Positions 452 to 60,212 of a DNA stretch of 64,000 bases are shown here, one piece after another. The DNA is taken from NCBI GenBank assembly GCA_964016885.1, contig OZ024758.1, forward strand, positions 30,132,001 to 30,196,000, read 5' to 3'. Both the position numbers and the translations under genes were made by a program. Numbering within the stretch: the stretch's first letter is position 1; the number at the start of each line of letters is the position of its first letter. This stretch comes from Eledone cirrhosa. Lineage: Eukaryota. The notes under the pieces are model-generated. The model saw nothing but the letters and a program-made list of their open reading frames with translations, did no database searches and was not told the DNA's origin.

Positions 452-505
452 ATAGCACCACTGACGATGTTGCAGATGTGCAACGAAAGAACTTTGATAA
501 ACTAT
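452..505 (+). ncRNA. Minimal hammerhead ribozyme motif (family A)
   Basis: CTGACGA(461-467)-T-GTTGCA-gatg-TGCAAC-GAAA(485-488)-GAAC-TT; perfect 6-bp stem II; partial stem I atag/ctat. Confidence 0.75.
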
Positions 506-732
506 ATATATGTGTTTGCGTCTATATTGTATCTGTATTATTTTTGACCGTTGGTCAGTCAATGGCAACATTGAGGACCGAATAAATTAGATTACCGATA
601 TAAAAGACACAGAAGCGAAAACCAACCAAACAGTGAGTGTGTTCTGTTATTAATTCTGGCAATATTACACAAATATGACCCTCCCCAAGTATAACAATAT
701 ATATATATATATATATATATATATATATATAT

Positions 733-933
733 AACGAAGGAAATGTGGTAAGGAACCAGATGGACCATAACGCACCAAAGTACTCAATACTTAGGGTAGT
801 AGAGTGGGTAATAGGAATAAAGGACCCCGACGGCTGAGCTCAAGCCGTTTCGACGGCTAATTCTGGACTTAATTAGCCGTCCAGAATTAGCCGTCGAAAC
901 GGCTTGAGCTCAGCCGTCGGGGTCCTACTTGTT
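733..933. mobile_element. Palindromic (TA)n-flanked element with the 3' half of a hammerhead (family G)
   Basis: Inverted arms ~822-865/881-926; GAAA-CGGCT-tgagctc-AGCCG-TC; second copy at ~59646-59860. Confidence 0.6.
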
Positions 934-993
934 TATATATATATATATATATATATATATATATATAACATTTGTTCGCTCTACATGGCTGAA

Positions 994-1211
994 TACAATA
1001 AATGTAATATGAGTTTTTCGAATATTAATAATAACATTCGATTCGTTTGCAATTATGCAAACAAGCTTCATTTTTAAAGCCAGGTAAGTAGAATGAACCC
1101 TTCATTCTTGCTCATTACATACATGGCTTTAAAATGGAGCTTGTTTGCATAATTACAAACGAATCGAATGTTATTATTAATATTTGAAAAACTCAGATTA
1201 CATTTATTGTA
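994..1211. repeat. Foldback inverted repeat between (TA)n tracts
   Basis: ~90-bp arms 994-1082 and 1125-1211 are near-perfect reverse complements. Confidence 0.8.
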
Positions 1212-1353
1212 TATATATATATATATATATATATATATATATATATATATATATATATATATATGTGTAAAAGGTAACCAGAAATAACAACACAATGGGT
1301 ACAGTATATGGAAGGTATACATTAGGTTAACGCTTGATACAGCAGGAAGAGGG

Positions 1354-1389
1354 TCTTAACGTTTCGGACGCTAGTCCTTCATCAGAAGA
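1354..1389 (-). ncRNA. Minimal hammerhead ribozyme motif (family B)
   Basis: Minus strand tctt-CTGATGA-a-GGAC-tagc-GTCC-GAAACGTT-aaga; identical core at 52052-52087. Confidence 0.8.
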
Positions 1390-2254
1390 AAGAATGAGAA
1401 ATAAAATAGATTAAGGGGACGGGCGGGATGGAATTGGAAAAAAATGTCTTTAGATAATATATATATGCACCAAAACAATGTATCTCTAGCGGTCGACTGA
1501 TGAGATGGGACCACTGTTTGTATTTGTTCATTTTCCTATCTTCATCCATATTTTTATTCACACACACACATACATATATATATATAAATGAAAATATAGA
1601 AATTATTGTGAGCAAGAAGCCAACAGTATTTCATATATATAAGTGACTATAACGTCAAAATGGAAAATAATTAACGTAAGATATGAGAAAATAATTCAAA
1701 CTCAATTAAAAAAAAGTCAAGACAGAGATTTTATCCACAGATTTTGTGAAATCCAGGGAAAAACCAATAGAGTCTTAACTCAGAATCAAATAAAGCTTAA
1801 ATACTCATCCTTCAATTTGGAAAAACTACAAATGCTCTATATAGTCTTAAAAAGACTATTTCACACACACACACACACACACACATACATATATATATAT
1901 ATATATATATCCATATGTAGTTGAAAGCCTACTCAATACCGAAGTAGAATTTAAATATTTCTTTAAGACTAAATAGTGAGTCTTGTTACTCTGGGGTTGT
2001 TTCACTTCTTCACAAGCTGACTCTCCAGAATAACAAGACTCACTATTTAGCCTTCATAAGATGGATATATATATATATATATATATATATCTATATATAT
2101 ATATAGATTTTGAGTTTATGTTGGTTGTATATCAACACCTCAGTATGCAGGCTGGAGCACTCGACGAAGTGCGCAGGTTGGTTTGGTTACTCCGGAGTAG
2201 TGTAAAATAAAGTTATATAAAAGTCAAATGATTAAAATTTAGCTTCGTTTATTA

Positions 2255-2307
2255 CTGCTATATATATTTCAGTGACAGCCATCTTTGGCTGTGACCTCTT
2301 CAGGCAG
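2255..2307 (-). ncRNA. Hammerhead motif (family C), left arm of palindrome 2201-2470
   Basis: Reverse complement of 2362-2414. Confidence 0.75.
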
Positions 2308-2361
2308 TTTGAATTAGTATGGTATAGACATATGTACTTGTCTATACCACACTAATTCAAA

Positions 2362-2414
2362 CTGCCTGAAGAGGTCACAGCCAAAGATGGCTGTCACTGA
2401 AATATATATAGCAG
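2362..2414 (+). ncRNA. Hammerhead motif (family C), right arm of palindrome
   Basis: ctgc-CTGAAGA-ggtcacagcca-aaga-tggctgtcact-GAAA-tatata-TA-gcag, followed by AATAAA. Confidence 0.75.
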
Positions 2415-57475: not shown

Positions 57476-57536
57476 TATTTTATCTGATGAGAGCATACCA
57501 AAGTTTTGGTACCCTTGAAATATATATAATAGAATA
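57476..57536 (+). ncRNA. Hammerhead motif (family D)
   Basis: tattttat-CTGATGA-gagcaTACCAAA-gt-TTTGGTAccctt-GAAA-tatata-TA-atagaata. Confidence 0.6.
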
Positions 57537-58465
57537 AATATGGTTCTATAAATATAGTTTCCATTTATTAATATCATTGAATATTATACTCCAGAAAACT
57601 TGTTGAGTGCTTCGAATATGTTATAAATAAATTTGTTGCATTACGAACAAATTAAATATCCCTTTGCTTATATATATCATCATCATCATTTGTTTAACGT
57701 CCATTTTAAACGAAGATGATGATGATGATGATGATGATGGTATATATATATATATATATATATATATCAGCAAATATATATATCAACTAGAAATTGATTG
57801 ACATATATATATCTAAAATAAACATATGAAACAATCACAGGGAATAATTTGTAAAAGTGTGTAAGCACACACAGCTATGTAGGTAACTAATTAAAGTTTA
57901 ACTAGAACTTTAAAAATAGATACCTTATAAGTTGATTAATCTTCCTTGTATATATTTCATTAAAGAAATATATTTCTACAGTGGATGTGGCGCATATCTC
58001 TCTGACATGACACCCTTAATATAATTTAATTTTGGATATATATATATATCATCATCATCATCATCATTTCATTTAACGCCCACTTTTTCCCTGCTTGCAA
58101 GGGTGGGACGGGAACTGATATATATATACAGTAGAAAGATGGAGAATCGGAATATCGGCCCACGAAATCACGATAAACAATATCCGACATGTGTGGCAGA
58201 GGGCTCAATAGTTTGGAAAAACCAGAGCTATAACTATCGTTAAAATACCAACACACAGAGATCATGCCTAAAATCACCCGTGCAGCCGAAAAAGAACGAC
58301 CAGGAAAATTCGGGTCACTCAAATAAAATATCAATAAATTAATAAATTAAATGAATGTAAAAAAACTCTATATTTTGAGTATACATTGGTTGTATACCAA
58401 CACGTCAGTATGCAGATTGGAGCACTCGACGAAGTGCGCAGGTTGGTTTGGTTACTCCGGAGTAA

Positions 58466-59399
58466 TCTATATATATAAAACTGAGGTTGTCTGTCTGTCT
58501 ATCGATTTTTGGCACACATCTCTTAGAATCTCTCACGGAATTGCACCGAAATTGCTATACTTGTACATTGAGCCCTAGCGAAGACATCGGAAAAAAAATA
58601 TTTCAAATTGACCCGCCCTATCTGACGAAATCGAATATAATGTATCGATTTTTGAGCGTAAGTGATCAGTTATTTCCCTTTGTTCTGTTTACATTGAGCG
58701 TCTGCGTGCAAAAATTAAAAAAATTACGCTGGCTTTCTCAGCGAAGCCTTTTAAAACAATATTTTTACTTGAAAACAAGTCTATTTAAAGACTACGTAAA
58801 ACAAGCAAATATTTCGTAAAAAAAAAGCAAAAATTATATAAGTTTATTTAAAATATATGTATCTGTAAATTTCGTTAGGCGTGCAGACAGACAGTCGTGC
58901 AGACAGATAGTTGTGCAGAGAGGTGATATACGCGTGCAGACAGACAGTCATGCAGAGAGGTGATATACGCGTGCAGACAGACAGTCGTGCAGAGAGGTGA
59001 TATACGCATGCAGACAGACAGTCGTGCAGAGAGGTGATATAGGTGTGCAGACAGACAGTCGTGCAGAGAGGTGATATAGGCGTGCAGGCAGACATAACTG
59101 ATAATTTGGTTACGCTAATGTTTTTCTCTGCGTTGCAGTGTTTACATTTTCGATCTTTGTTAATAAATAACCAGTGCAGTTTCTATCCCCAGCATCCTCT
59201 TTTGTTATAACATTCGGGTTATCGTTATGTTTTCTTAACTTCATAAGGCATATTGTTGGTTGAGGGAATATTAATCAAAAACACCACATGCAAGTCTGCA
59301 CAGTAGACACTACAGTTTTTAAGCCAAGAAAGAAACTTAACATTGTAACTTTAACACAGCTACTGAGCGACCCCGAGCAACGCCGGGCTTTACTGCTAG
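58466..59399 (+). mobile_element. Non-autonomous Helitron with internal ~37-bp repeats
   Basis: A|TCTATATATATAAAACTGAGG ... CCCGAGCAACGCCGGG ... CTAG|T; empty site seen at ~2190-2215. Confidence 0.85.
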
Positions 59400-59455
59400 T
59401 GTAAAATAAAGTAAAATAAATAAGTCAAATGTTTAAAATTTAACTTTGTTTATTA

Positions 59456-59508
59456 CTGCTATATATATTTCGGTGACAGCCATCTTTGGCTGTGACCTCT
59501 TCAGGCAG
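59456..59508 (-). ncRNA. Hammerhead motif (family C)
   Basis: ctgc-CTGAAGA-GGTcACAGCCA-aaga-TGGCTGTcACC-GAAA-tatata-TA-gcag; canonical G-C closing pair. Confidence 0.8.
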
Positions 59509-59645
59509 TCCGAATTAGTGTGGTATAGACAAGTACATATGTTGTTGAGGTGTATAATTTTGTCAATACTCTGATATGCCCAGTTCCTGGTTGGGTTGTT
59601 ATTTCACTGAGGAACTGGAATCATATATAACCTCTGCATATATAT

Positions 59646-59860
59646 AGGAACAAATAAGACCCCGACGGCTGAGCTCAAGCCGTTTCGACGGCTAATTCTG
59701 GACTGAATTAGCCGTCCAAATTGGACAGAATTAGCCGTCGAAACGGCTTGAGCTCAGCCGTCGGGGTCTTACTTGTTCCTATTACCCACTCTACTACCCT
59801 AAGTATTGAGTACTTTGGTGCGTTATGGTCCACCTGGTTCCTTACCACATTTCCTTCGTT
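59646..59860. mobile_element. Palindromic family-G element
   Basis: Second copy of 733-933 in the opposite orientation. Confidence 0.6.
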
Positions 59861-60021
59861 ATATATATATATATATATATATATATGCAGAGGTTATATT
59901 TAATTTGTTGGGATTCAACAAGCTTAACATTTTTTTATAACTGATATAAAGCACTCAACAGATTAGTGGAGTAAATACACAATATATTAATAAATGGAAA
60001 CTATATTTATAAAACCATATT

Positions 60022-60087
60022 TATTTTATTATACATATTTCAAGGGCCACCAAGGCAAATTATGGTGCACTTTCATCAGATAAAATA
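60022..60087 (-). ncRNA. Hammerhead motif (family D), left arm of palindrome ~59991-60242
   Basis: Reverse complement of 60147-60212. Confidence 0.6.
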
Positions 60088-60146
60088 CAATAAGCTCCAA
60101 CCGTTTCTTTCTGGGTATGTCAATATTTATTTATGAAACAAATCTG

Positions 60147-60212
60147 TATTTTATCTGATGAAAGCGCACCATAATATGCCTTGGTGGCCCTTGAAATATG
60201 TATAATAGAATA
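60147..60212 (+). ncRNA. Hammerhead motif (family D), right arm
   Basis: tattttat-CTGATGA-aagcgCACCA..TGGTGgccctt-GAAA-tatgta-TA-atagaata. Confidence 0.6.

Follow-up and report, generated by a model that had tools for sequence, protein, structure and literature searches.

Islands with hammerhead motifs in (TA)n tracts of Eledone cirrhosa as probable truncated ends of Penelope-like elements

The 64,000-nucleotide stretch of the Eledone cirrhosa genome analysed here (contig OZ024758.1, positions 30,132,001 to 30,196,000; hereafter the window) contains numerous short islands in (TA)n tracts that carry motifs of the hammerhead ribozyme. We consider it very probable that these islands represent the 5'-truncated, often head-to-head inverted 3' pseudo-long terminal repeats (pLTRs) of several autonomous Penelope-like element (PLE) families, each with a predicted type I hammerhead, inserted in (TA)n. 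Observed directly are the linkage of families to open reading frames (ORFs), partial tandems, inversions, two fixed 3' ends, TA-like bases at these ends and the motif counts. The hallmarks of PLEs that were found comprise a reverse transcriptase (RT) resembling that of telomerase, an endonuclease (EN) of GIY-YIG type located C-terminally in the same ORF, partial or complete tandem pLTRs, inverted 5'-truncated copies and an optional tail.

The motifs were searched using an extended descriptor consisting of the core boxes, a helix II of at least 3 bp (bulge allowed), GAAA, UH and a helix I of at least 4 bp, which also admits U3-A8 and U4C cores, and using a stricter form that accepts CUGANGA only. 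A bulge after A9 was permitted, since a form without it misses family F2. As control served 100 shuffles of the window in which dinucleotides were kept within 1-kb blocks. The CUGANGA-only descriptor detected 11 sites compared with a shuffled mean of 0.05 (maximum 1), and the extended descriptor detected 12 compared with 0.16 (maximum 2), while each of eight altered cores gave 0 matches in the window. The passing sites have their core base C3 at 2366, 9084, 9618, 13136, 52056, 57484 and 60155 on the plus strand and at 1385, 2303, 9393, 59504 and 60079 on the minus strand.

An earlier inspection of the same DNA without database searches (the sequence-only reading) had proposed about 16 hammerheads, giving 18 coordinates, and this observation is confirmed. 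Each coordinate lies at the site of a hammerhead family: 12 pass the extended descriptor, three combine intact boxes with a helix I that is either weak (461 and 9503, plus strand, just 2 bp) or absent (51928, minus strand), and three have a mutated core, G8 reading C at 52366 (plus strand) and G12 reading A at 25839 (minus strand) and 25943 (plus strand); the latter two belong to F7, whose copies elsewhere form a long-helix-II hammerhead. The palindromic stubs were likewise found, the helix III stub being self-complementary in 11 of the 12 passing sites. Other statements have to be modified. The CUGANGA core was assumed for all sites, but 9618 carries CCGANGA, a trait of family F6 that recurs in 20/20 fetched relatives, these having been picked by similarity to a CCGA copy. 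The seven families suggested were found, whereas an eighth, G, had been overlooked, and the islands described as non-coding and 150-500 bp long include one around 461 of about 670 bp, of which 27-190 encodes the C-terminus of a GIY-YIG endonuclease. The motif AATAAA, which had been noticed behind several hammerheads, was seen 3' of eight sites from three related families only, 0-6 nt past the cleavage site. As it mostly overlaps the 3' strand of helix I, it provides no evidence of a poly(A) signal, and this interpretation was rejected. An Rfam scan at the gathering threshold recognised none of the 18 listed window sites as a hammerhead.

The families are arranged in the window as follows, with the position of C3 given for each hammerhead and the basis of the assignment in brackets:

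27-700, plus strand: F1, a 5'-truncated PLE of the CX4CxxC-linker type, C3 at 461, ending at (TA)n; 91.8% over 722 nt to locus L082. Positions 27-190 are the frameshifted end of the GIY-YIG ORF (translation), followed by the 3' untranslated region (UTR); helix I has 2 bp and the stub is non-palindromic.
728-933, both strands: head-to-head arms of G (728-873 minus, 879-933 plus) without core box, the hammerhead being represented by its 3' half alone (GAAA, helix III, GUC, helix I'); intact parent in L292-L296.
1261-1457, minus strand: truncated 3' end of an F2 PLE, C3 at 1385, stub ACGU (RT and EN upstream in longer copies).
2105-2469, both strands: head-to-head pair of F3, in which the minus arm has its C3 at 2303 and carries the tail, while the plus arm has its C3 at 2366; stub AUAUAUAU (L211 and L225 contain a Hydra-type EN at 1.2 kb upstream).
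2540-2565, minus strand: degenerate F2-like hammerhead remnant with both boxes altered, absent from the earlier list (sequence).
9003-9192, plus strand: truncated end of a Hydra-type PLE of F4, C3 at 9084 (EN upstream, and ORF downstream of the tail, in L191 and L203/L298).
9202-9589, both strands: head-to-head pair of F5, the minus arm with C3 at 9393 and a tail, the plus arm with C3 at 9503 and a mismatch in helix I (F4-like sequence).
9595-9703, plus strand: end of a Hydra-type PLE of F6 with U4C core (CCGAAGA) at 9618 (sister subfamily enters a Hydra-type EN).
13073-13230, plus strand: copy of an F4 subfamily, C3 at 13136 (sequence comparison, descriptor).
25745-26037, both strands: head-to-head pair of F7, a family with long helix II, C3 at 25839 (minus) and 25943 (plus); both copies have G12 changed to A.
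51780-51950, minus strand: diverged F1-related copy that has core boxes at 51928 and has lost helix I (76% to F1 over 63 nt).
51954-52177, plus strand: F2 copy, C3 at 52056 (descriptor).
52198-52473, both strands: inverted tail arm of F4 (52198-52286, minus) and forward arm with broken core (52366, G8 changed to C).
57421-57672, plus strand: copy of an F4 subfamily with tail, C3 at 57484 (descriptor).
59397-59627, minus strand: F3 copy, C3 at 59504 (descriptor).
59644-59865, both strands: head-to-head pair of G, the minus arm at 59644-59708 and the plus arm, which has the tail, at 59726-59865; only the hammerhead's 3' half is present.
59882-60242, both strands: head-to-head pair of F4, the minus arm with C3 at 60079 and a tail, the plus arm with C3 at 60155 (descriptor).

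The abundance of the motifs in the genome was estimated from forty 10-kb stretches at round coordinates (399,800 bases; 18 stretches on the four largest contigs and 22 on others, with unplaced contigs left out). The descriptor with C3-G8 core gave 27 motifs in this sample as opposed to 0.4 in shuffled sequence, corresponding to about 2.0 x 10^5 motifs genome-wide, and the widest descriptor gave 40 as opposed to 4.15, corresponding to about 2.7 x 10^5 (bootstrap 1.6-3.9 x 10^5) or roughly one per 11 kb in 2.996 Gb. The window is about twice as dense as the sample; thus, the one motif per 4 kb of the sequence-only reading represents a local high, whereas its very high copy number was borne out. 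A whole-genome search for an exact pattern covering part of F3, F4 and F5 resulted in 45,093 matches versus 6 for the reversed control. The placement of the families at (TA)n was also found beyond the window, since (TA)4 occurs within 300 nt downstream of 36 of the 40 sampled motifs compared with 36% of random positions.

The possibility that the motifs are chance matches, or fossils without a selected RNA structure, appears practically negligible. Most genomic copies are presumably dead, and the folding energy of the G motif is not below that of shuffles (z 0.55; frequency of the minimum free energy (MFE) structure 0.0024). However, the excess over the controls is large in the window, in the sample and for the reversed pattern, and self-complementary stubs occur in 20/37 sample matches compared with 7/63 matches in shuffled sequence. 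Furthermore, C3-G8 and U3-A8 covary between families, and the 243 motifs found in 1.48 Mb of selected, and in this respect biased, loci form 46 sequence clusters (26 with at least two copies) that keep the same boxes with different helices.

Longer genomic copies (loci with L numbers) were fetched from the assembly for every family except F5. In these copies five of the seven families run into PLE coding sequence for RT and/or GIY-YIG, which supports the earlier proposal of truncated Penelope elements; the extension to such an ORF succeeded for F6 via a sister subfamily, but no ORF link was obtained for F5 and F7. In F1, RT (YVDD) and EN lie upstream in several of the 25 fetched loci, including L090 and L092, and L082 is a partial tandem continuing into the next ORF start. 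Same-strand tblastn matches to RT/EN end about 450 nt upstream of the F2 hammerhead in 9 of 20 loci, and L229 has a hammerhead at both ends. Two of the 20 F3 loci (L211, L225) share a contiguous UTR of 1.2 kb from the EN stop to the hammerhead, with an EN fragment that starts within the linker and shares 48% identity with F4. EN fragments are located about 1.7 kb upstream of F4 in 8 of 25 loci, and in L203/L298 the hammerhead is followed by the tail and a 742-aa ORF. In the F6 sister subfamily a Hydra-type EN was detected upstream in at least 5 of 20 loci (L248, L252, L256, L264, L265). Partial or complete tandems were thus observed in L082, L203/L298, L229, L042 and, with units of 3,531 bp, in G.

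The EN motif VxY..Y[IV]GxT is present in G, F4, F6, F3, F1 and F2, and YxDD in G, F4, F1 and F2. G and F4 contain RWR, DKT, YRDD, CxCX5C, CxxC and CxH, F6 has the CxCX5C linker, and F3 and F6 are 33-48% identical to G/F4. F1, F2 and the element in L042 possess a C-terminal GIY-YIG domain with a CX4CxxC linker, although their mutual identity is only 21-31%. By the motif criteria of Craig et al. 2021, G, F4, F3 and F6 are assigned as putatively Hydra-type and F1, F2 and L042 as putatively Neptune/Nematis-type. A homolog search gave 2,214 sequences at E <= 1e-20. Pfam domain PF01541 (GIY-YIG) was matched over the cut-off on L042 and at the L041 ORF, and RVT_1 was matched on L042 and F2 below the curated cut-off. 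Some of the top Pfam GIY-YIG loci have a U3-A8 core, and just 2 of 30 have a passing motif within 1.5 kb downstream. Many further hammerhead families (L002, L057, L068, L078, L150, L289 and others) were noticed that have a helix II of 30-60 nt and a near-palindromic helix III of 8-11 nt.

In the window, family G is represented by two islands that form perfect hairpins, namely the pairs at 728-933 and 59644-59865. Long copies were first met among the systematically sampled stretches; one such copy, used as query, retrieved 40 copies at 99-100% identity. Four units follow each other head-to-tail at a spacing of 3,531 bp with an intact 716-aa ORF, and inverted truncated copies lie upstream of the ORF (L292, L294). 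The predicted model of the ORF product reached a pLDDT of 92 (96-sequence alignment), with telomerase RT as the top Foldseek match (E 1.8e-8). G appears to be a young, intact Hydra-type PLE. A complete Neptune-like PLE was detected in L042 (2952-7931, minus strand), encoding RT and GIY-YIG in a 930-aa ORF with DKG and carrying a U3-A8 hammerhead with an ACCGGU stub in both pLTRs. A pair of F6 in the same locus was considered as the 3' end of this ORF and rejected, as a (TA)n tract lies between them. Over L292:4560-8080, the summed contig depth in run X1 amounts to 1,300-16,500 across the 3' UTR and hammerhead versus 8-250 across the ORF, a contrast exceeding that in run X2. The contigs of both runs indicate presence only, and because the kind of run is not on record, nothing about expression follows from this depth.

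Copies of one family that lie within 1.5 kb of each other in the fetched loci form pairs that are head-to-head in 32 of 45 cases, direct in 9 and tail-to-tail in 4. The 3' ends are bimodal, with 49 and 30 of 90 copies of F4 and 63 and 76 of 152 copies of G at the two positions, proportions that are not unbiased as many loci were chosen by family. Such two-ended termini also occur in F1, F1b, F6 and the L042 family. Inverted pairs have the tail, about 45-145 nt in length, on one arm only. At the eight main 3' ends, mapped in four families with a read-through copy, the element matches (TA)n for 5, 5, 3, 3, 4, 2, 4 and 7 nt, so that 7/8 ends show a microhomology of 3-7 nt, compared with a background mean of 0.7-1.2 nt and a probability of 0.04-0.15 for at least 3 nt; one further end among F6/F5 (n=2) matches for 5 nt. 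No report of microhomology at Neptune or Penelope ends was found in the literature searched, which did not cover subscription papers.

The sequence-only reading had also allowed for non-autonomous or retrozyme-like families, and this part was not upheld. In such a case the islands would amplify as short RNA circles by their own hammerheads, borrowing PLE enzymes. Their copies are indeed short and similar in size with clustered 5' ends, F5 and F7 have no ORF link, and retrozymes are described as deriving from PLE pLTRs (bioRxiv 10.64898/2026.07.22.740005). However, no hammerhead-bearing tandem array occurs among the 106 Tandem Repeats Finder rows of the window, junction sequences vary between copies, and the ends fall at two internal sites with the tail on one arm only. 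Because the families have ORF-bearing parents (five families and G run into ORFs) and neighbouring copies are mostly inverted, with direct pairs only 9/45, the retrozyme-like interpretation is unsupported and seems improbable.

As truncated PLE ends, the islands could arise by a mechanism in which the GIY-YIG domain, as PLE biology suggests, nicks (TA)n and thereby frees a 3'-OH, which likely anneals to a UAU/AUAU patch located at either of the two internal start sites in the RNA tail. The RT would copy back through the hammerhead, usually stopping within about 150 nt, and a second priming event would yield the inverted arm. The hammerheads likely process tandem transcripts of full elements, either via a second copy or via the element's protein. 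Since the start sites lie immediately downstream of the hammerhead, it would be carried by nearly every insertion, and the density would therefore be explained without a function for the short copies. In inverted pairs the partner comes to lie on the other strand, so that most of the short copies are probably silent; they are most simply regarded as by-products.

Several observations weigh against the interpretation as truncated ends of autonomous PLEs. No upstream ORF was found for F7 in 25 loci, nor for F5 in 11 F5-like contexts, for which no long-copy search was made, and both families could be non-autonomous. Pfam detected no domain on the Hydra-type ORFs, where the EN was called from motifs, and PDB sequences gave 0 matches in a profile search. 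The best monomer fold predicted by ViennaRNA buries helix I or the core in F1, F2, F4 and F6 (probability of helix I at most 0.06). In Anolis Poseidon the start site is described as non-homologous to the cut DNA (Frangieh et al. 2024, PMC11167929), unlike the TA microhomology at the ends mapped here. Finally, the 5' ends, measured only in loci that had not been fetched for the respective family, are clustered in part: 10/16 copies of the Neptune-like L042 family begin at -43 to -34 and G mostly at +39 to +57. Such clusters are more readily reconciled with RNA 5' ends at fixed positions or with strong stops than with random truncation. The 5' ends of 87/105 non-G copies and of 65/65 G copies lie no more than 150 nt from the core.

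The clusters may point to a variant of the truncated-PLE interpretation in which the RT starts at the tail sites near the 5' end of a pLTR-initiated transcript and runs off its 5' end. We regard this as possible, if not the favoured course of events. The clusters are family-specific, the Penelope start site is reported to lie in the pLTR (PMC8557442), and on the G unit the summed contig depth in run X2, which is not a copy number, rises from about 1 x 10^5 (4560-4677) to about 1.7 x 10^6 (4678-4913), with 26 loose ends before 4722. However, the 5' ends of F1b and F4 are spread, and the same clusters would result if the RT stopped strongly at hairpins.

The stub-type motifs resemble the published dimer-type hammerheads of PLEs. 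In all ten that were folded, the probability of the A15.1-U16.1 pair in the monomer is at most 0.01, and the stubs are mostly self-complementary, with self-duplex energies of -1.0 to -8.3 kcal/mol (F1 +1.4). In most families helix III is modelled as a self-complementary stub of 4-8 nt, for which a second copy or the element's protein would be required. All four bases occur at core position 7 in G and F4, the remaining core positions being fixed by the search pattern. An initial classification of F7 as a non-hammerhead with a 2-bp helix II was reversed once the register with the long helix II was found. The U4C core of F6 corresponds to a known natural variant with lowered activity (PMC3088659).

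The hammerhead of G has a U3-A8 core, a helix III of 6 bp and GUC. A C3-G8 core before its helix II had also been considered, but the pattern gave 11 matches, nearly all of them in an RTE long interspersed element (LINE); some G subfamilies have C3 opposite A8. Unconstrained MFE and centroid folds both correspond to the active three-way junction (probability 0.95 for helix I and 0.63 for the closing pair of helix III), and the G ribozyme is predicted to fold as a monomer, although older variants, among nine distinct sequences, do not all fold actively. Copies of G mostly start within helix II, so that the core is kept in 7/72 arms (6/29 in the systematic sample plus window) compared with 89/105 copies of the other families. 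Whole-genome patterns gave 6,991 core halves versus 54,378 3' halves for G, of which about 13% keep the CUGA box, and 36,898 versus 37,572 (about 98%) for the dimer-type F4. Self-cleavage, a start site in loop II or stalling of the RT at the long helix II could each explain this loss, and the data do not separate them. A tentative and rather unlikely explanation is that G RNAs with a complete ribozyme cleave themselves and so lose the RT start sites before copying, leaving copies without the CUGA box. If true, it would constitute genomic evidence of PLE hammerhead cleavage in vivo, the dimer-only design would protect the template, and about 47,000 half-hammerheads would be left as potential in-trans substrates.

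Besides these copies the window contains a tail-only fragment of F3 without hammerhead (58372-58469) and a palindromic island between (TA)n tracts (934-1263, 81% self-inverted, no hammerhead boxes), which is possibly another PLE end. A 62-bp satellite (38114-41090, 48 copies, 97% matches) resembles window positions 630-691 of F1, its 3' end/ORF-start region, by about 76-81% over 63 nt and adjoins an F1-like inverted remnant (41028-41326); it likely arose from a PLE tail. A repeat of about 190 bp with more than ten copies (37146-37334, 44629-44818, 45481-45670, 17891-18076, 23291-23483, 60243-60372 and others) also sits inside PLE ends, the copy at 60243 interrupting F4. Beside one copy Rfam reports a weak tRNA match (31.6 bits, 37052-37109), where ARAGORN finds no tRNA; the repeat may be similar to short interspersed elements. 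One 72-bp unit forms five separate tandem arrays within a dispersed repeat (14140-14572, 22369-22494, 23666-24592, 42671-43652, 50823-51543). A LINE encoding an AP-endonuclease, an RT and a PHD-like finger in two frames is located at 33447-36224 (minus strand), which we take to be RTE-like, with another fragment near 56325-56927.

With regard to published counts, 126,247 hammerhead motifs are reported for the axolotl (PMC7229834), about 9,000 for Xenopus, 4,000 for the coelacanth and 2,000 for S. mansoni (PMC4209133), and 235 Rfam matches for the giant squid (PMC6962438). The estimate presented here is the highest among those found, at about 20 times the density of the axolotl, a comparison that is rough because the descriptors differ. 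No count of this size for a cephalopod was found in the literature searched, subscription papers being outside its coverage. Rfam-style annotation overlooks the whole class, and the Hydra-type PLEs, invisible to Pfam, constitute a major repeat in this genome. G, with near-identical copies that are predicted to be competent as monomers, exists beside dimer-type families with tens of thousands of insertions each, and ribozyme activity, RT start sites and TA targeting are therefore directly comparable. This may be of value since published work treats the role that PLE hammerheads play in vivo as unknown (PMC7761336, PMC8557442).

The motifs share with the minimal hammerheads of PLE pLTRs, as described in PMC4209133, a short or palindromic helix III, a bulge after A9, the occurrence as dispersed single motifs that stem from truncated PLEs or as two motifs on opposite strands at a distance of 100-700 bp, and the U3-A8 variant, found there in S. 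mansoni. They differ in number (about 2.7 x 10^5 versus about 2,000-9,000, by different descriptors), in the many families with helix II domains of 30-60 nt and in the 6-bp helix III of G, a large helix III being described there for fungal and protist but not metazoan PLEs. F1, F2 and the L042 element resemble Neptune/Nematis PLEs in their C-terminal GIY-YIG and CX4CxxC linker, L042 also in DKG and in the hammerhead in both pLTRs. PLE tails are published as 30-40 nt, whereas they measure about 45-145 nt here.

The Hydra clade as described by Craig et al. 2021 (PMC8557442) is similar in DKT, the CxCX5C linker and CxxC plus CxH around a conserved E/N, as well as in (TA)n insertion, a hammerhead near the 3' end, inverted 5'-truncated copies and a tail; the octopus element Hydra-1_Obim has a hammerhead and a (TA)n preference. 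However, G and F4 have RWR where the clade has RWK, and the G unit of 3,531 bp and the 3' UTR of F4 of about 1.7 kb depart from the stated tendency of 'generally <3 kb'. The Hydra hammerheads in File S2 of that paper all have a C3-G8/U4 core and a helix III of 3-4 bp, unlike G (U3-A8, long helix III) and F6 (U4C), and Hydra families are described there as few outside cnidarians, whereas at least four Hydra-type families are very abundant here. In Poseidon of Anolis, two internal RT start sites downstream of the hammerhead likewise define the tail and the targets are AT-rich; in vitro, its RT started internally, and hammerhead cleavage needed protein and was dispensable (PMC11167929). The animal non-LTR retrozymes (PMC7229834; Li et al. 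2026 bioRxiv) are comparable in their type I hammerheads at very high copy number, but are ORF-less direct tandems with monomers of 150-400 nt, unlike the inverted or single ends of ORF-bearing elements found here. Taken together, truncated PLE ends with hammerheads, their bias towards (TA)n and inverted pairs are already published, while the motif density, the hammerheads of Hydra-type elements with U3-A8 and long helix III or with U4C, the bias towards half-ribozymes and the microhomology to TA appear to be new.

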